The translations under genes and the position numbers were made by a program. From NCBI RefSeq assembly GCF_013177435.1, contig NZ_CP053627.1:150001-182000 (forward strand): a DNA stretch of 32,000 nucleotides. Direction: 5' to 3'. Source of the stretch: Xylella taiwanensis (GTDB lineage Bacteria; Pseudomonadota; Gammaproteobacteria; Xanthomonadales; Xanthomonadaceae). Each line of letters begins with the position of its first letter. Within the stretch, counting starts at the first letter, position 1. Shown here in pieces: positions 23,870 to 32,000 of this stretch. Under the pieces are notes generated by a model. That model was given only the letters and a program-made list of their open reading frames with translations, was not told where the DNA came from and searched no databases.

Positions 23870-24544
23870 TTATAGCCAGCCGTGTTCGGCAAGTGAGACC
23901 GGCGCACCGTCGCCAATCACGAAGTGGTCGACGAGGCGCACGTCGACGACGTCTAAGGCGTCTTTCAAGCGCTTAGTGACTATTCGATCGGCGGGTGAGG
24001 GCTCCCGGTTACCGGATGGATGATTATGGCCGACGATCACTGCCGCTGCGTTCAGAGTCAATGCACGCCGTACTACTTCGCGTGGGTGGACTTCAGCACC
24101 GTCAATGGTGCCGTGGAACAGTTCTTCAAAGCTGATGGCGCGGTGCCTGTTGTCCAGGAACAGGACGGCGAATACTTCATGTTGATGCGCTCGCAGGCGC
24201 TGTGCGAAGTAGCGTCCGGCGCTGATCGGATCCTCGATACTTGCGCCGCGTTGCAGCGCGGCGGCCAGGTGGCGAGCACTTAATTCGAGTGCTGCGGTCA
24301 GTTTGCAGGCGCGTGCCAGCCCTAATCCTGGCAGGCGCATGAGATCGGCGGGAGGTCGGTCCAGCAGCTCGCGTAGCGGGCCATGCGTGTGCAGCAGGTC
24401 GCGTGCGGTTTGCACCGCGTCGCGGCCGCGCAGACCAGAGCCGAGGAAGATCGCGAGCAGTTCGGCATCTGAAAGTGTGGTGGCACCCCGGGCCAACAGC
24501 TTTTCACGTGGTCGTTCATGAGTAGGCCAATCGTTGATGTGCAT
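23870..24544 (-). CDS. radC: RadC/YicR-family JAB (MPN) domain protein
   Basis: It has the C-terminal JAMM-like motif [14 protein letters not shown] and an N-terminal HhH region ([27 protein letters not shown]). ATG 24544 gives 224 aa, as in E. coli YicR. The ORF-track start at 24598 would add 18 residues and cannot be excluded. It is divergent from coaBC. Confidence 0.85.
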
Positions 24545-24641
24545 ATGTCGAGGATGGCGAGTTTCATGCGTTTCGGATATCAGAGTGGTATGGATCATCG
24601 GCTAATCTAGTCGTCCTGATGAACTGTAGGAATCAACCGAC
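24545..24641. promoter_or_regulatory. Divergent radC / coaBC intergenic promoter region (inferred)
   Basis: Inferred from the back-to-back arrangement only. Confidence 0.3.
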
Positions 24642-25871
24642 GTGACTGGATCGCATCAGCCACGCTCATTGAACGGACAGCGTTTGCTGTTGTGTGTCAG
24701 TGGTGGTATTGCCGCTTATAAATCGCTTGAGCTTGTGCGCCGCCTGTGCGGTGCTGGTGCCCAAGTTCAGGTGGCCATGACTGCCAGTGCGCAGCAGTTT
24801 GTCACCCCGCTTAGTTTTCAGGCATTGTCTGGGCAATCGACCCGTACCACGCTGTGGGATGGCAACGCTGAACAGGCGATGGGGCATATCGAATTGGCGC
24901 GTTGGGCCGAACGTGTTCTGATTGCTCCTGCCAGCGCTGATGTGATTGCGCGGCTCGCACATGGGTTAGCGGATGATTTGGTGACTACGCTGTGTTTGGC
25001 GACAACCGCACCGCTGATGATATGTCCCGCGATGAACCACAAGATGTGGTTGCATCCAGCGACTCAGGCGAATGTTGCGACGTTGTGTAGCCGTGGTGTG
25101 CAGGTGATCGGGCCAGAAGACGGTCCGTTGGCCGAAAAAGTGTCTGGCCTGGGTCGCATGAGTGAGCCTGAGGTGATCGTTGCTGCGTTAACTCATGGAC
25201 TGTCTCCTGCTCCTGTTCGGGGTGGTCTGCTGCAGGGGCAGCGCATCGTGATCAGCGCCGGACCCACGTTCGAAGACTTGGATCCGGTGCGCTACCTTGG
25301 CAATCGCAGCAGTGGGAAGATGGGTTTCGCTCTGGCTGCTGCGGCTGTGTGCCATGGGGCCGAGGTAGTGTTGGTGGCTGGCCCAGTGTATCAACCAACT
25401 CCACAGGGGGTGATCCGGGTGGATGTGCGCTCGGCGGCGCAGATGCGCGATGCAGTATTCAGTGCGTTCCCTGCCGATATTTACATTGGTGCAGCGGCGG
25501 TGGCCGATTACACGCCCAGACGGGTGTTGCCCCAAAAGATCAAGAAGGCTGATGAGATACTGATCCTGGAGTTGATGCGTACCCCAGATATCTTGTCTGA
25601 GGTGGCAGCGCAGACGGGTACCCTGAAATTGGTGGTCGGTTTCGCTGCAGAGACTCATGATGTTGAGCACTATGCACGCGGTAAATTGGCTGCCAAACAC
25701 TTGGATTTGATTATTGCCAACCAAGTCGGTGTTGTTGGAAACGGCTTTGAGAGCGATGACAATACTGTCACTGCGTATTGGCAGGGCGGCGAGCGCGTTT
25801 TTCCCAGTTGCAGCAAGGTGGAGTTGGCTGAGAGCTTGCTGGCACTGATTGCCGAAAGGATGCAAGCATGA
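24642..25871 (+). CDS. coaBC: Bifunctional phosphopantothenoylcysteine decarboxylase / phosphopantothenate--cysteine ligase
   Basis: 409 aa with a GTG start. The N-terminal flavoprotein domain is present ([29 protein letters not shown]), as is the C-terminal CoaB domain ([25 protein letters not shown]). The stop overlaps the dut start (ATGA at 25868-25871). Confidence 0.93.
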
Positions 25872-26335
25872 GTGTCGCCTTACAGCCCCTGCAGATTAAG
25901 ATCCTGGATTCCCGTCTCGGTACCGTTTGGCCGCTGCCAGCCTATGCTACCGAAGCCAGTGCCGGGCTTGATCTACGGGCCGTACTGAATGCACCGGTGA
26001 TTCTAGCTCCTGGGGATGCTGAGTTGATATCCAGTGGTTTAGCGATTCATCTGGGTGATCCGAGCTTATGTGCAGTGGTATTGCCTCGTTCTGGTTTGGG
26101 TCATCGTCATGGGATTGTGCTGGGTAACGGCACAGGTTTAATCGACGCGGACTATCAAGGGCCGTTGCTGCTGAGTATCTGGAACCGCGGGCACGAGGCT
26201 TTCACTATCGAGCCGGGCGACCGCATCGCCCAGCTGGTTGTGTTGCCGATGGTGCGAGTCGTGCTTCAGGTGGTGGATACTTTTGCTGACAGTGGGCGTG
26301 GTGCGGGTGGATTCGGTCACACCGGCGTGCGTTGA
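25868..26335 (+). CDS. dut: dUTP diphosphatase
   Basis: 155 aa with the dUTPase motifs [26 protein letters not shown] and the C-terminal [10 protein letters not shown]. Confidence 0.95.
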
Positions 26336-26348
26336 CAGAGGAAGATAG

Positions 26349-28709
26349 ATGAGTGAGACAACTGGAAACGCGTTGCTTTTGCCGATTAAACGACACCAGA
26401 TTGCATTCTTGTTGGCGATTTTGTGCCTGCTGTTGACGGGCGTGTTTGGTTGGGCGGCGTACATGCAGTGGCGGCAGAATGTGGTGGCGCAGAAACTTGA
26501 GCAGGCGCGCGATGGTGCTGTCGTGTCATTGCGTCAGGTGTTATCTGGCCAGGTCCGACAGTTGCAAAATGTGTTGCAGCGCCCAGCCATCGTACAGGCG
26601 CTGAGCGGCGGTAACACCACGGTAGCCGCTGCAGCGATTCGCGAGCAATTTCCAGGTGCTGAAAAGGTGCAGGTTCTGCCAGATGATCTGAGCGCCGCTT
26701 ATGCCGATGTGGCGCGTTCTGGTTATGCCCGGCTTGGGCTGATGGAGGCCGCTCTTGGTGGCGATGGTGTGAAGGCATGGGTGGTGCGTGACGGCACTCA
26801 GACTGGTTTGGGTATGGCTGTGATGGTAAAGCTTGGCCAAGTTCCGGCGGTGGTCTACCTGTGCCTGCCGCTAGGGGGCTTGATCAGTGCGTTGGAGGCG
26901 ATCGATGTCCCCGATAGCACTTACTTGGCATTGCGGCAGGGTAGTTACACGGTGGTCGAGCGTGGTAACGCCGCCTTAGCGAACGGTGGTGAGGTTCTGG
27001 CTAAGCCGCTGGGTTGGGTTGACCTGCGTGTAGCTGCTGCCCTGCCCCAGTTGGAAACTGTTCTACTTGATCTTGGGTTGGTGCCATCTTTGATTGTGAC
27101 AGGGATGTGTGTGCTGCTTGTGGTGATCCTTGTGTTAGTTGTGCGTGGGCATGTGGTGCTGCCCAGCCGCCGCGATGCGCAAGTGGCCAATACAAAACAG
27201 CTTACTTTACGTGAAAGTCTGGAGCAGGAAGCACAGGTGCGCGTGGCTGTGTTAAAGGAGGAAAGCACGGCTGCATCCTCGCCGTCGCTGCATCTTCAGA
27301 CCGGCTCGGCAAGTGTTGTTCAACCCAGTCTTTTCCATACCTGGGATATCTATGGTGTAGTTCCTCGCGAGCTGACACCAGCAGCGGCGAGGTTGATCGG
27401 TCAAGCGATCGGCAGCGCGATGCAGGCCAAAGGGTTGCGTGAAATTGTGATTGGCCGTGACGGTCGCCTGTCCAGTGCGGAATTGTCCGCGGCATTAAGC
27501 GATGGTCTACGTCATGCTGGTTGCGATGTGGTAAACATCGGTTTGGTGCCGACCCCGGTAGTGTATTTCGCTGCATGCCATCTTGACGTTGGCAGTTGCG
27601 TTGCGGTCACTGGCGGCCATCATCCGCCGGATTACAACGGTTTCAAGATCGTGATTGGTGGTGAGGTACTATCCAGCGAGGCGATCAACGATCTGTATCG
27701 GCGCATTGCCGATGGTCGTTTACATGTGTCTGTCGATCCAGGCAGGTTGAATGAGCGTGATGTGGTTGGCGATTACATTCAGCGTATTGCCGATGATGTG
27801 CAATTGAATCGCCCGCTGAAGATTGTTGCCGATGCTGGTAACGGTGCGGCTGGCGAGATCGTTCCGCGTCTATTCGAGGCGATTGGTGCGGATCTGGTGT
27901 CACTGTACTGTGATATTGATGGTACTTTCCCTAATCGCCATCCTGATCCTGGCGAGCCCGACAACCTGAAGCAACTGATGCAGATGGTTGAGCGTTCCGA
28001 TGCCGATGTGGGTATTGCCTTTGATGGTGACGCTGGGAGTCTCAGTGTGGTGACTCGCCAAGGTAGGATCGTCTTATCAGATCGCCTGTTGATGTTGTTT
28101 GCCGCTGATGTGTTGCAGCGCAATCCGGGTGCTTTGGTGATCTATGACGTCAAAAGTACCAGCAAGCTGTCTGACTATGTGCTGCGCAACGGCGGTAGCC
28201 CGTTGATGTGGAAGACTGGGCATTCCTTAATCAAAACAAAGATGCGCGAGACCGGTGCCGAATTGGCTGGTGAAATGAGTGGTCACTTCTTCTTCAAAGA
28301 ACGCTGGTATGGCTTTGAAGACGCACTGTATGCGGCGGTGCGTTTGCTGGAGATCCTGGCTCAGCATGAGGATCATCCGTCCGAGGTGTTCGCTGCATTG
28401 CCTGACGCTTATTCCACCCAGGAACTCAAGCAGCCTGTTGAGGGTGACGCGCAGGCATTGGTGCGGTCTTTTATCGAGGAGGTGCAGCGCGGCGGTGAGG
28501 GAACTTTGTTCGATGGCGCCCGGCTGTCTACCGTGGATGGTCTGCGTGCCGACTTCGCTGATGGTTGGGGCCTGGTACACGCCTCTGACATTGCACCGGC
28601 ATTGGTATTGTGCTTTGAGGCTGACACGCAGGTTGGGTTGGAACGGATCCAGAGTGCATTCCGCACCCAGCTACAGGCATTATTGCCCGACCAGAGAATG
28701 ATATTTTAA
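26349..28709 (+). CDS. AlgC-type phosphomannomutase/phosphoglucomutase homologue with a 324-aa N-terminal two-TM extension and non-canonical catalytic motifs (possible pseudoenzyme)
   Basis: 786-aa intact ORF. Residues from about 325 to 786 are colinear, from memory, with P. aeruginosa AlgC (PPDYNGFKIV, FPNRHPDPG, MWKTGHSLIK, AGEMSGHFFFKERWYGF, RLLEIL). Residues 1-324 comprise TM1 (IAFLLAILCLLLTGVFGWAAY), a loop of about 195 aa, TM2 (LVPSLIVTGMCVLLVVILVLVV) and a linker. The catalytic motifs are substituted (see findings). Its position after coaBC-dut mirrors dut-algC in Pseudomonas. Confidence 0.8.
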   Translation: MSETTGNALLLPIKRHQIAFLLAILCLLLTGVFGWAAYMQWRQNVVAQKLEQARDGAVVSLRQVLSGQVRQLQNVLQRPAIVQALSGGNTTVAAAAIREQFPGAEKVQVLPDDLSAAYADVARSGYARLGLMEAALGGDGVKAWVVRDGTQTGLGMAVMVKLGQVPAVVYLCLPLGGLISALEAIDVPDSTYLALRQGSYTVVERGNAALANGGEVLAKPLGWVDLRVAAALPQLETVLLDLGLVPSLIVTGMCVLLVVILVLVVRGHVVLPSRRDAQVANTKQLTLRESLEQEAQVRVAVLKEESTAASSPSLHLQTGSASVVQPSLFHTWDIYGVVPRELTPAAARLIGQAIGSAMQAKGLREIVIGRDGRLSSAELSAALSDGLRHAGCDVVNIGLVPTPVVYFAACHLDVGSCVAVTGGHHPPDYNGFKIVIGGEVLSSEAINDLYRRIADGRLHVSVDPGRLNERDVVGDYIQRIADDVQLNRPLKIVADAGNGAAGEIVPRLFEAIGADLVSLYCDIDGTFPNRHPDPGEPDNLKQLMQMVERSDADVGIAFDGDAGSLSVVTRQGRIVLSDRLLMLFAADVLQRNPGALVIYDVKSTSKLSDYVLRNGGSPLMWKTGHSLIKTKMRETGAELAGEMSGHFFFKERWYGFEDALYAAVRLLEILAQHEDHPSEVFAALPDAYSTQELKQPVEGDAQALVRSFIEEVQRGGEGTLFDGARLSTVDGLRADFADGWGLVHASDIAPALVLCFEADTQVGLERIQSAFRTQLQALLPDQRMIF

Positions 28710-28715
28710 CCCTTA

Positions 28716-29402
28716 TTAAGGGTCGGGCTCTGCTAGTAGAGAGGCATTTATATCACCACTTTTTAGTGCCCGGTAACGTTGCAGGGTTTCTTCGATTTCC
28801 CCGTTCAGTGCTGCACGTTCCTGCTCGAAGTTGGTTTGCAGCCGCTTCTGCGACAGAAGATCTTGGCGGCGTTGCTGGATATTAGCGGCGAGTGTGTCTG
28901 GTACTTTCTGTCCAGCGAGTTCCCTTTCATTGGCACTGCGTAACAAGTTGACCAAGCCTTGGCGCAGGTTAGTTGCGTTGTAGCGGGCGGTCGTCACATT
29001 GTTGTCGATGGTTGCGATGCGTTTTAAGAATACTTGTCGCAGATCGTCTTCGGTCTGAAACGCAGTCAACATGATTTGGTCAGCGCGTTTGCGGGTTTCT
29101 TGGGCCGTCTGGTCTGCAAGCCGTTGTGCTTCTTCTGACGCAATGGCAGCACGCTCGTTGGCATTGGGCGCGCGTTGCACCTCGTTCTTGCGTATGCCGT
29201 TATTGGCACTGAATTCTTCATGTGCGGCATTCACTGCTTCGGCAGGTAGCGTGTCGCTGCAAATACGTTGTCCGTTCTGATGCCAGCAGTAAAGCTTTTT
29301 TGCGTTAGATTTCGATGTTTGCGTGTTGCCAAGTTGCGGCCATCCGGTAACGGCAACACATAAAACTGTACTCCAGTAGATGTGGTGTTTGTTTGTGTAC
29401 AT
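28716..29402 (-). CDS. Secreted coiled-coil protein, DUF4124-like N-terminus
   Basis: 228 aa. A signal-peptide-like N-terminus (WSTVLCVAVTGWPQL) is followed by LYCWHQNGQRICSDTLP, which resembles the DUF4124 motif (YkW.D..G...ysD..P) as I recall it. The remainder is Q/R/A/E-rich and predicted coiled-coil. It is convergent with the algC-like gene, with only 6 bp between the two stop codons. Confidence 0.55.
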   Translation of the reverse strand: MYTNKHHIYWSTVLCVAVTGWPQLGNTQTSKSNAKKLYCWHQNGQRICSDTLPAEAVNAAHEEFSANNGIRKNEVQRAPNANERAAIASEEAQRLADQTAQETRKRADQIMLTAFQTEDDLRQVFLKRIATIDNNVTTARYNATNLRQGLVNLLRSANERELAGQKVPDTLAANIQQRRQDLLSQKRLQTNFEQERAALNGEIEETLQRYRALKSGDINASLLAEPDP

Positions 29403-29425
29403 CGCATGTTACTCTCTTTGCTTAC

Positions 29426-30085
29426 TCAGCCAGATACTTCGGCCCCATAGCGTGCTTGGTAGGCCAGCAGAGGCGTGCAGAATTTAGTGAGGTTGGCGTT
29501 CCCCTCGACAAATGCTAACAGGTCGCCAAGGGTTGCGATGGCTATCACAGGGATCCCGGTTTCGGCCATCAACGTTTGAACGGACGATTGGCGGTTGGTT
29601 TCTGAAGCGATTTCCTGGCGGTTCAGGGCTACTGCGATTCCGGTTGGGGTGCCCCCAGCGTTGTGGATGATGCCCAATGCCTCGCGGATTGCTGTGCCTG
29701 CCGTGATGACATCGTCGATAATCAATATCTTGCGTCCGGCCAGTGGCGCGCCGATCAGAGTGCCACCCTCGCCGTGGTTTTTGACTTCTTTGCGGTTGAA
29801 TGCGAGCAGCAGGTCGCGCTTACGCCGCGCGTACTCGCAGACCAGTGCTGTAGCGAGCGGAATTCCTTTGTAGGCTGGGCCAAACACCAGGTCGAAGTTC
29901 ACATTGGCTGCGTCGATCGCGTCGGCATAGCAGTGTGCTAGTGCAGCGATTTTTGCACCTGAATGAAAGTGCCCAGCGTTAAAGAAATAGGGGCTGATGC
30001 GACCGGACTTGAGCGTGAATTCTCCAAAGCACAGTGCGTTTGAGTCTAAGGCCAGCTGTAGGAAACGTTGGTGGTGGTTGGACAT
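29426..30085 (-). CDS. pyrE: Orotate phosphoribosyltransferase
   Basis: 219 aa from ATG 30085. The ORF-track GTG 30100 adds 5 aa. Motifs present are the PRPP-binding motif KILIIDDVITAGTAIRE, FGPAYKGIPLA, and the N-terminal FGEFTLKSGRISPYFFN. Confidence 0.93.
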   Translation of the reverse strand: MSNHHQRFLQLALDSNALCFGEFTLKSGRISPYFFNAGHFHSGAKIAALAHCYADAIDAANVNFDLVFGPAYKGIPLATALVCEYARRKRDLLLAFNRKEVKNHGEGGTLIGAPLAGRKILIIDDVITAGTAIREALGIIHNAGGTPTGIAVALNRQEIASETNRQSSVQTLMAETGIPVIAIATLGDLLAFVEGNANLTKFCTPLLAYQARYGAEVSG

Positions 30086-30658
30086 GAGTGGATGAATCAC
30101 TGAGAACGTGGAGAAGGTAAGGTCCTAAGCATAGCGACTGGCGTGATGTTCCCTATCTTGCCAAGGGCCATTTTATTGATGGTGTTCTCATTTCAATTTC
30201 TGCACGTGCATGACAAGTTTTAATACGAGAGAGATTTTCTGATCGCACGAACGCCATTTTCTTCTCTGTTAGGTCTTCTGTGCTGGCAGCTCGGTTGATC
30301 GGACACGATCTGCGTGTCCATCGTGCTAGTGGTGCTGATGGGGACGTACACTAGCCGTGGTACTGATCACCTTATCCAAATAGGGTAACGACCCTGCTTC
30401 CTGTGAAAGACAGGCATCCTCCCCGGAATGGTTGCAGCCCGTGGATGCCTGATGAAACATTGGAGATGTCCCTGGTAAGCAGGAGTCGGAATATACGCGT
30501 GTGATGCGTTGCCTACGTGTATGGTGACAGATGCGATCTTGTGTGGATTTTAGAGAGAATTTGTTTTGCTGATTTTCGAAGTTTCGATTAATACTCGAAA
30601 TTACAGACTGTCTTTATGGTAGAAGATAGCAATATTAGGCTTCTCTTAGGGTATTTAT

Positions 30659-31468
30659 ATGGCCACCGTTCCCCTGGATTTTCCTTTTACTGCTTTTCGT
30701 AGTGAACTGCCAATGGATGATTATTTGGCTCCAGATATGAAATGCGGTGATCTCACCGAGAAACAATTAATAGATGACTTTGGACTCTCATTTGTTTCAT
30801 TTCATGTGGATCCTTTCAATAATGAGGAAAAATTTATAATAAGAAAAAATAAAAGAATTTCTGATAACCAAGCAAGCATTATGTTATTTAATGAATTTCG
30901 TGTCTGGACCAGAAGATTATCATTTGGTTGTTACGCGGGGGCGATGCAAAGTCTTATATCGAATTTTCAAGATAATAAAGGAATGCCTTTTAGTGATCCT
31001 TTACTTGATAAGGCATTCAAAGAGCTAATACTGAATGAAAAATCAGAGAATGGTTCTATATCAAGAATTAAATCAGCCCTTGATGATTATATTGATTGGG
31101 ACATAGGCTTTTTACCATCGGAAAGCAAGAAACATATCATTGAACTTCTCAGAAGCACGGTATTTCCAGAGTTTACTCGGATTCAAGATACGTTTAATGG
31201 GCTTGGACTCGCTGTCCACAATATTAATTCAATGGATATTACAATTAATTCTTTGCATATCCATGATAATCGTTACTGCGCTAGTATTCATTATCAAGGG
31301 CAAGATCATTTTGGATTGGATGATGGTGATATTCTTGATTTTAGGTTTCACTATTTTAATATATTCAGAATTTGGTTTGTTCTGCAACGTTGGAGCAGAT
31401 ATGCTTTTAAGCCTTTTATGACTAATATGCAGGCGACGATCGAAATTTCGGGGATAAGACCCATTTAA
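30659..31468 (+). CDS. Hypothetical protein encoded in a strongly AT-rich patch (possibly DUF3289 family; unverified recollection)
   Basis: This 269-codon ORF is the only long ORF in the patch. By eye its G+C is roughly one third over sampled lines, against about one half in the flanks. It has no TM helix or signal peptide. Segments such as MDDYLAPDMKCGDLTEKQL, GLGLAVHN, DHFGLDDGD and FRIWFVLQRWSRYAFKPFMTNMQATIEISG remind me of DUF3289 (PF11692) proteins. I cannot confirm this without an HMM search. Confidence 0.6.
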   Translation: MATVPLDFPFTAFRSELPMDDYLAPDMKCGDLTEKQLIDDFGLSFVSFHVDPFNNEEKFIIRKNKRISDNQASIMLFNEFRVWTRRLSFGCYAGAMQSLISNFQDNKGMPFSDPLLDKAFKELILNEKSENGSISRIKSALDDYIDWDIGFLPSESKKHIIELLRSTVFPEFTRIQDTFNGLGLAVHNINSMDITINSLHIHDNRYCASIHYQGQDHFGLDDGDILDFRFHYFNIFRIWFVLQRWSRYAFKPFMTNMQATIEISGIRPI

Positions 31469-31626
31469 TGAATAGAAGTTTTTATCACAAGCTAAATCAT
31501 GAAGCCGATGTAGCAGACGCGCTTGCGTCTGTGAAGAGTGATCGGAACTCTGGTTGTCGAGTTGGAATCATGAGGTTAAACGATGACTACCGATGTGTGA
31601 TCTCTTGCGTATGTATTCATGACTGA
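31468..31626 (+). CDS. Candidate small ORF (52 aa), stop/start-coupled to the 269-aa ORF
   Basis: I translated this by hand because it is below the ORF-track length cut-off. ATG 31468-31470 overlaps the TAA 31466-31468 of the upstream ORF (TAATG). The product is MNRSFYHKLNHEADVADALASVKSDRNSGCRVGIMRLNDDYRCVISCVCIHD*. I recognise no family, and the coding status is uncertain. Confidence 0.25.
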   Translation: MNRSFYHKLNHEADVADALASVKSDRNSGCRVGIMRLNDDYRCVISCVCIHD

Positions 31627-31770
31627 AGCGTGGTGATCAGGGCTCGAAGGATCTACCGTATTTTACTGTTGTTTCTGGAATGAGCATGCTGAGGCAAAGT
31701 AAAGCGGTGCCAGCTCACTGGAAGCGGCTGGCAAGCCGCCAATTCCCCATTCGATTGTGACCCGAATTTC

Positions 31771-32000
31771 TTATGCTTTCACGGTCTTAATCACCCAAAA
31801 GTCAGACGCCAATTGCTTATTGCACATGTATTCATAAGGCATCCAGAAATATCCGTTTTCGCCCACTTCGCTTCCCCATGAGTTACGGATACGAAACTGT
31901 TTTCTTTCATCATCATAACCGACACACAAGACAGCATGGCCCCCTTCAAGTTCATCCTTATCGATTGGCAAAGGGATTTCAACTGGCAACGGTTTATTGC
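31771..32000 (-). CDS. Papain-family (C1A) cysteine peptidase, 3' portion; the gene continues beyond the window end
   Basis: The C-terminal 70+ aa contain the catalytic-His context [12 protein letters not shown] and the catalytic-Asn context [23 protein letters not shown]. The frame stays open to nt 32000 (the codons upstream of the track's TTG read ..NKP), so the Cys-containing N-terminal half lies outside the window. It resembles the bacterial papain-like protease known from Xylella (xylellain) in type and context. Confidence 0.85.

Follow-up and report, generated by a model that had tools for sequence, protein, structure and literature searches.

The DNA analyzed here, referred to as the window, is a stretch of 32,000 nucleotides (nt) from the genome of Xylella taiwanensis (NCBI RefSeq assembly GCF_013177435.1, contig NZ_CP053627.1, positions 150,001 to 182,000 of the forward strand). 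Close to its right end, an AT-rich patch lies between pyrE, which encodes orotate phosphoribosyltransferase, and a gene for a papain-like cysteine protease. The patch carries an open reading frame (ORF) of 269 codons on the plus strand (30659-31468, ATG start), which is the orthologue of XF_0155 of Xylella fastidiosa and encodes a protein of the DUF3289 family (TIGR03034, YPO3983 family). A second plus-strand ORF of 52 codons (31468-31626) follows, its ATG overlapping the TAA stop of the first. The results described below identify the larger ORF as a maintained gene of a toxin family, and the smaller one as a chance reading frame.

In 200-nt windows, the G+C content (GC) was 0.305-0.39 across positions 30500-31499, compared with 0.52-0.62 in the genes at 24000-30000, and it returned to about 0.47 beyond position 31500. 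The trough coincides with the 269-codon ORF, which has a GC of 0.35 and a GC at third codon positions (GC3) of 0.29, compared with a GC3 of 0.53-0.64 for pyrE, dut, coaBC and the PMM gene. A sharp drop in GC and two ORFs joined by a TAATG overlap had been described in an earlier note on this DNA, and both were recovered in the current study, the ORFs at exactly the same coordinates. At the local base composition, the probability of an open frame arising by chance is about 1e-9 for 269 codons and about 0.05 for 52 codons, indicating that only the large ORF is longer than chance would allow.

The 269-amino acid (aa) protein matched Pfam family PF11692 (DUF3289) with an E value of 5.1e-82 and 275.9 bits (cut-off 25) over residues 6-265, covering positions 1-272 of the 272-position model. 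The match to NCBIfam TIGR03034 was stronger still (E 8.9e-111, 369.7 bits, cut-off 156.45, residues 5-265, model positions 1-274 of 274). In a family alignment of 46 sequences, the Xylella protein kept all 35 of the 35 invariant columns. These include H187; Q215-D216-H217-F218-G219-L220-D221 and D224; F236-R237-I238-W239-F240 and L242-Q243; and P252-F253 and T255, so that the conserved blocks QDHFGLDxxD and FRIWFxLQR are intact. The earlier note had suggested a resemblance to DUF3289 and proposed that PF11692 be tried; the full-model matches confirm this, and the description of the ORF as an orphan no longer holds. No hydrophobic segment was found in the protein (maximum Kyte-Doolittle mean over 19 residues, 0.76), in agreement with the earlier statement that it has neither a signal peptide nor a transmembrane helix. 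The Pfam scan of the protein returned DUF3289 alone, with no match to a colicin M domain, and PADLOC, which searches for anti-phage defence genes, gave no match.

The same 46-sequence alignment was the input for an AlphaFold2 model, which had a mean predicted local distance difference test score (pLDDT) of 89.7 and a predicted template modelling score (pTM) of 0.84. The structure prediction and Foldseek search that the earlier note had suggested as checks thus gave a confident model, and the best match in the PDB was another DUF3289 domain, chain 9jdi_A (E 4.2e-12, probability 1.00, TMq 0.55), which is the C-terminal domain of BtpeA. According to the title of the PDB entry, 9jdi contains the C-terminal domain of BtpeA, a type VI secretion system (T6SS) effector of Bacteroides fragilis, with its immunity protein.

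The locus is conserved within Xylella. The window was identical to CP087686.1 and CP011800.1 over the 10.3 kb compared, and both encode exactly the same 269-aa product. Orthologues with 76% and 73% identity are found in X. fastidiosa at the same site, between pyrE and the papain-like protease gene. The orthologue cluster contains XF_0155 (strain 9a5c), Temecula1, M23 and subspecies pauca, fastidiosa, multiplex, sandyi and morus, and the ORF was intact on several hundred contigs representing all X. fastidiosa subspecies. Between X. taiwanensis-type and X. fastidiosa sequences, the synonymous divergence (dS) of the DUF3289 gene was 0.50, compared with 0.44-0.60 for pyrE, dut, coaBC, the PMM gene and the protease gene. 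The ratio of nonsynonymous to synonymous divergence (dN/dS) was 0.27, with a bootstrap 95% confidence interval (CI) of 0.17-0.40, and was equal in the N- and C-terminal halves. About 138 substitutions separate the X. taiwanensis and X. fastidiosa genes, and none of them introduced a stop codon or frameshift in a 35%-GC frame in which 7% of random codons would be stops. The GC of 0.35 and GC3 of 0.29 were equal across the lineages. The 269-codon ORF is, in summary, a genuine gene, maintained by selection, whose product is a full-length TIGR03034/DUF3289 protein.

A separate observation was made within X. fastidiosa. When two subspecies groups were compared (L003 vs L010), the DUF3289 proteins were 83% identical (dS 0.31, dN/dS 0.27), and the flanking proteins were 96-99% identical (dS 0.017-0.25). 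Such a contrast suggests an old allelic split or recombination at the gene.

A third deep Xylella lineage is represented by a metagenome-assembled genome (MAG, GCA_052692575.1), and is about equidistant from the other two. It retains the protease and the flanking core genes, and at the same site (L106/L107:6135-8000) it has a frameshifted remnant of the DUF3289 gene corresponding to residues ~12-57 (~46 residues), with 46% identity. The presence of this remnant at the same site indicates that the gene was already present in the common ancestor. The third lineage also serves as a gauge of neutral decay across an equal time span, against which the intact, constrained copies of the other two lineages gain significance.

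The distance between pyrE and an Exo_endo_phos gene is ~115 bp in Xanthomonas nasturtii and X. albilineans, whereas in Xylella the two are separated by 7-9 kb containing the DUF3289 gene, the protease gene and pieces of an ABC-three-component (ABC-3C) conflict system. Since the Xanthomonas outgroups lack the whole block, with pyrE abutting the Exo_endo_phos gene, sequence comparison shows the DUF3289 gene to be the member nearest pyrE in an inserted block specific to the genus. The left anchor of this Xylella-specific insertion site is pyrE itself (29426-30085, minus strand), identified by Pfam PF00156 and by its named orthologues.

Outside Xylella, nearly all named relatives of the protein came from Enterobacterales, the exceptions being one from Pseudomonas graminis and one from an unclassified proteobacterial MAG locus; a scan of species-representative genomes did not return Xylella itself. 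In a distance tree, the closest of these relatives, a copy in Symbiopectobacterium purcellii with 60% identity, was sister to the Xylella clade. A deletion of 12 residues in the N-terminal domain is common to both, and the S. purcellii copy has a GC of 0.30 and no DUF943 gene downstream. The vectors of Xylella are xylem-feeding leafhoppers and spittlebugs. S. purcellii was isolated from a leafhopper, according to the literature. No relative above ~42% identity was found in collections of phages, plasmids and viral contigs, and the viral matches lay at contig ends; carriage by phage or plasmid was therefore rejected as the vehicle. No transfer RNA (tRNA) gene was found in the window, no integrase was found among the called genes of the locus, and flanking direct or inverted repeats did not exceed chance-size matches, as the earlier note had already remarked for integrase, tRNA and direct repeats.

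These comparisons show a single entry of the DUF3289 module into the Xylella lineage, at a time before its known deep branches separated, followed by vertical inheritance, with the gene remaining AT-rich. The horizontal origin proposed in the earlier note is upheld, as the family is otherwise enterobacterial and the block is missing from the Xanthomonas outgroups. Its picture of a recent, strain-level insertion is not, given the same locus in three lineages and a dS like that of the neighbours. The survey of relatives that it had suggested therefore gave a divided answer: the locus is conserved, which largely refutes a recent insertion, but the codon usage is still unlike that of the host.

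In Pantoea, Serratia and other Enterobacterales, a DUF3289 gene of ~280 aa precedes a DUF943 gene of ~150-155 aa that overlaps it and whose product carries an N-terminal hydrophobic segment. A DUF943 gene was found downstream in 72 of the 74 enterobacterial loci with enough downstream sequence, and the pairs often occur in tandem arrays. Klebsiella has a fusion of a PAAR domain with the whole module (40% identity over query residues 5-267), and a DUF943 gene comes after it; the two families have been linked in Klebsiella T6SS loci in the literature. DUF3289 has also been listed in the literature among the toxic C-terminal domains of PIX-domain T6SS effectors of Enterobacterales. Geller et al. 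showed that a DUF3289 domain is toxic in the periplasm of E. coli, where it causes cell rounding, that a DUF943 protein neutralises it, and proposed that DUF3289 is a homologue of colicin M, which degrades lipid II (PMC11148199). In Aeromonas jandaei, an 'orphan' DUF3289 protein is secreted in a T6SS-dependent manner, and a small membrane protein, whose gene lies immediately downstream, makes up a bona fide effector/immunity pair with it (PMC12135965). The ~270-aa module is thus, in Enterobacterales, a T6SS antibacterial effector, standalone or PAAR-fused, with an overlapping DUF943 immunity gene. The Xylella protein is predicted to be an enzyme of a colicin M-like class, which would attack the cell wall or a lipid-linked precursor from the periplasmic side.

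It was also found that Pantoea agglomerans has a DUF3289-DUF943 pair ~4.6 kb from pyrE, in a radC-coaBC-dut-pyrE neighbourhood that is conserved in Xylella as well. This may be a coincidence, or may reflect a common preference for the region.

The position where the enterobacterial DUF943 gene sits is occupied in the window by a non-coding spacer (31469-31770) that runs to the convergent peptidase gene and aligns poorly, with indels, between Xylella species. No DUF943 gene or remnant was detected in a six-frame profile search (hmmsearch with --max) of the window, the 20.8-kb source locus and the X. fastidiosa loci, and with nothing found by this sensitive search, a degraded copy downstream or elsewhere at the locus was rejected. 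The 52-codon ORF in this region is not a substitute. In X. fastidiosa DNA its ATG is replaced by ATA, indels of 3, 2 and 1 nt break the frame, and stops occur in all three frames; since start, frame and openness are all lost, the comparison marks the ORF as a chance reading frame rather than a gene. Its 52-aa product had no match in Pfam, NCBIfam or PADLOC, and no hydrophobic or transmembrane segment, unlike DUF943 or the immunity protein of Aeromonas (PMC12135965). Comparative sequence, lack of a family match and lack of hydrophobicity together exclude it as a partner gene, and the translationally coupled partner proposed in the earlier note did not withstand the comparison with X. fastidiosa. 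Of the toxin/immunity-like pair suggested there, the toxin half stands, since the family of the 269-aa product has been shown to be a toxin (PMC11148199, PMC12135965), but the small ORF is no partner.

Two further candidates for an immunity gene were rejected. A 93-codon ORF in another plus-strand frame within the DUF3289 gene (31140-31421) is strongly hydrophobic (maximum Kyte-Doolittle mean over 19 residues, 2.87) and was considered as a possible hidden gene for a membrane immunity protein. Stop codons break this frame in X. fastidiosa, which marks it as a by-product of T-rich sequence. The second candidate, a 122-aa gene downstream of the Symbiopectobacterium copy, has a normal GC (0.52), belongs to prophage debris and has no counterpart in Xylella. 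Its product scored 26.9 bits (E 5e-06) against a CCDC90-like coiled-coil model, short of the Pfam cut-off of 33.5 bits.

T6SS clusters have been reported absent in all Xylella members (PMC6653060). Among the genes called in the ~20-kb source locus there was none for VgrG, Hcp, PAAR or an adaptor; outside this locus the window was not screened for T6SS genes. With no immunity gene and, according to the literature, no secretion system, the Xylella locus falls outside the DUF3289-DUF943 T6SS effector-immunity pairs.

The upstream spacer (30086-30658), between pyrE and the DUF3289 gene, was conserved between Xylella species over its proximal ~250 nt, presumably the promoter and leader, and was variable in its distal part. 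In X. fastidiosa this spacer is ~270 nt longer than in X. taiwanensis. Some annotations call a 163-aa minus-strand ORF in the longer spacer (L003/L004:7166-7950; window 30101-30400), which has no Pfam match, and most of that segment is absent from the X. taiwanensis window. In neither spacer did any Rfam match at E<=1 reach its family gathering score, and scans of the spacers for promoter and terminator consensus sequences gave results at chance level.

These results are best explained by a maintained DUF3289 toxin gene, acquired once by an ancestor of the genus, that has no immunity gene and most likely serves an antibacterial use independent of a T6SS, an explanation advanced here with moderate confidence. 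Lacking an export signal, the protein would remain harmless in the cytoplasm of the producer, since toxicity in this family is exerted only from the periplasm. Sister cells that have no T6SS could not inject each other, so that DUF943 would have become dispensable and been lost. The continued purifying selection argues that the protein is still in use, most likely, it may be supposed, as an antibacterial toxin released independently of a T6SS, by lysis or in vesicles, in the mixed communities of the xylem and the insect foregut.

Several observations weigh against this explanation. The dN/dS of 0.27 exceeds that of pyrE, dut and coaBC (0.10-0.16), and the gene is dispensable, since one Xylella lineage has lost it. 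We know of no T6SS-independent delivery route for the DUF3289 family, and a literature search on the locus tags XF_0155 (confirmed), PD0124 (guessed) and YPO3983 returned nothing on the Xylella gene. The link to colicin M is weak in structural terms: syringacin M, ColM and PaeM occupied ranks 2-8 of the Foldseek search with E values of 0.014-0.3, probabilities of 0.1-0.4 and TM scores of 0.17-0.30. A profile search of PDB sequences retrieved DUF3289 chains and no colicin M-family chain at E<=1. No import or receptor-binding domain of the colicin M kind was recognisable, the DUF3289 model spanning the whole protein, although no dedicated test for such a domain was made. Finally, the absence of DUF943 and T6SS genes is based on ~52 kb of locus sequence and on the literature.

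A wider proposal is put forward tentatively. In it, a T6SS-type, periplasm-acting toxin module has stayed functional since before the known Xylella lineages separated, in a genus lacking both a T6SS and the immunity gene. It would either be deployed by an undescribed T6SS-independent route, for example in the abundant outer-membrane vesicles or by lysis of part of the population, or have taken on a new role other than that of a weapon in a xylem-limited pathogen carried by insects, and the transfer would have taken place from one leafhopper-associated bacterium to another.

The strongest alternative to a maintained antibacterial toxin is that the enzyme was repurposed, being kept for a non-killing role after its T6SS context and immunity partner were lost, for example in cell-autonomous turnover of envelope or undecaprenyl-linked precursors, or on a plant or insect substrate. 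Purifying selection despite the lack of a known delivery system or immunity gene would fit such a role, as would the lack of a signal peptide, which leaves the protein cytoplasmic unless the cell lyses. The 12-residue deletion and missing DUF943 that set Xylella and Symbiopectobacterium apart as a distinct sub-lineage, and the adjoining xylellain-type protease, discussed in the literature as a plant-colonisation factor common to vascular pathogens, are also consistent with it. However, the Xylella protein retains all the invariant residues of the toxin family, QDHFGLDxxD and FRIWFxLQR included, and the equal dN/dS of its two halves gives no sign of a functional shift. The gene was lost in one lineage, and nothing points to an alternative substrate, so that repurposing is regarded as unlikely, though it deserves consideration.

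It is also conceivable that the gene is a slowly decaying relic, a functionless leftover of an old transfer that happens to be undisrupted still in X. taiwanensis and X. fastidiosa. The missing T6SS and immunity gene, the atypically AT-rich composition, a dN/dS above that of the housekeeping neighbours, the decay to a remnant in the third lineage and the splitting of the neighbouring protease gene in some X. fastidiosa strains could all be read in this way. A neutral relic would hardly have gathered ~138 substitutions without one stop or frameshift, and the CI of its dN/dS excludes 1. The ORF is intact across all subspecies with every invariant family residue kept, and the third lineage shows how little of the gene neutral decay leaves in an equal span of time; a relic is accordingly considered improbable.

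Least probable by far is the reading of the earlier note, a recent toxin/immunity or effector/chaperone pair with the 52-codon ORF as its translationally coupled partner: the TAATG overlap does resemble that of genuine coupled pairs, and the true enterobacterial partner likewise overlaps the toxin stop, but the small ORF has no start codon, a shifted frame and stops in every frame in X. fastidiosa, its product has neither a family match nor a transmembrane segment, a frame of its length has a chance probability of ~0.05, and the locus is ancestral to the genus.

The gene to the right of the DUF3289 gene encodes a xylellain-type papain-like (C1) cysteine protease (PF00112). Only its 3' end lies in the window (31771-32000, minus strand), and it continues in the adjoining sequence (L001:11113-11928). 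The full protein matched PDB 3OIS, a cysteine protease of X. fastidiosa, with an E value of 8.6e-160. The gene is low in GC as well (0.42-0.44), and is a separate gene within the same inserted block. In some X. fastidiosa genomes it is split into ORFs of 105 and 123 aa (L005-L007:9079-9894), and in others it is intact. Xylellain-like peptidases are described in the literature as horizontally shared among vascular plant pathogens, including the hemipteran-associated Arsenophonus.

Past the protease gene lie the pieces of the ABC-3C system, namely a Mrr_cat-CTD12 effector, an MC8 middle component and a DUF2326 ATPase (L001:13417-16264, ~2.8-5.6 kb beyond the right end of the window, and L003/L004:10970-14093). 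Genes of this system encode 376 and 528 aa in X. fastidiosa compared with 277 and 318 aa in X. taiwanensis, which suggests decay in the latter. To the left of pyrE, the gene of a phosphoglucomutase/phosphomannomutase homologue (26349-28709, plus strand) encodes 786 aa, of which roughly the first 330 form an N-terminal extension preceding the PGM_PMM-type region. Hydrophobic stretches occur in this extension, which is also conserved in Xanthomonas (781-788 aa). This protein evolves relatively fast, with 76% identity between the Xylella species and a dN/dS of 0.27.

X. fastidiosa is a quarantine plant pathogen whose competition with other microbes in the xylem and the insect foregut is poorly understood, and XF_0155 and its orthologues would represent a conserved, uncharacterised candidate antibacterial factor in that setting. 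The locus offers a natural case for the fate of a T6SS effector without a secretion system and an immunity gene, with three sister lineages in three states, two with maintained copies and one with a decayed copy. The kinship with a leafhopper symbiont, and a protease shared with hemipteran-associated enterobacteria, point to the insect vector as a possible place of gene exchange. The impact on annotation is small, as the gene is already labelled DUF3289/YPO3983 family; the 52-codon ORF should not be annotated.

The TIGR03034 proteins of Enterobacterales (Pantoea, Erwinia, Serratia, Yersinia and Klebsiella) resemble the Xylella protein in length (~270-280 aa), sequence (40-46% identity) and invariant residues, and their genes are likewise AT-rich relative to their own genomes. 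They differ in being followed by DUF943 (72/74), in often standing in tandem and in their capacity to be fused to PAAR, whereas the Xylella gene is single, lacks DUF943, has the 12-residue deletion and belongs to a genus reported to have no T6SS (PMC6653060). The S. purcellii copy is similar in its deletion, missing DUF943 and very low GC, and its leafhopper host belongs to the vector group of Xylella, but it lies among insertion sequence (IS) elements and prophage debris and not at the pyrE locus. With BtpeA (PDB 9jdi, 9jg8) the Xylella protein has the toxin domain in common, and the conserved C-terminal block can be aligned at the sequence level; BtpeA is, however, a multidomain protein of 608 residues in which DUF3289 forms the C-terminal domain. 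The A. jandaei effector is also encoded by an 'orphan' gene, far from the T6SS clusters (PMC12135965). For both it and BtpeA, secretion through a T6SS has been demonstrated experimentally and a cognate immunity protein is known (PMC12135965 and the title of 9jdi), whereas Xylella has neither. DUF3289 has been proposed to be structurally homologous to the colicin M family (ColM, syringacin M and PaeM), which are phosphatases degrading lipid II, and to attack the cell wall from the periplasmic side (PMC11148199). ColM-family structures rank directly after BtpeA in the fold search, but the fold scores are weak, the sequences do not match, and no import domain with a TonB box or receptor-binding region was recognisable in the Xylella protein. 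The Xylella case is not described in the literature searched, and shows a protein family that is already known in an unusual arrangement.

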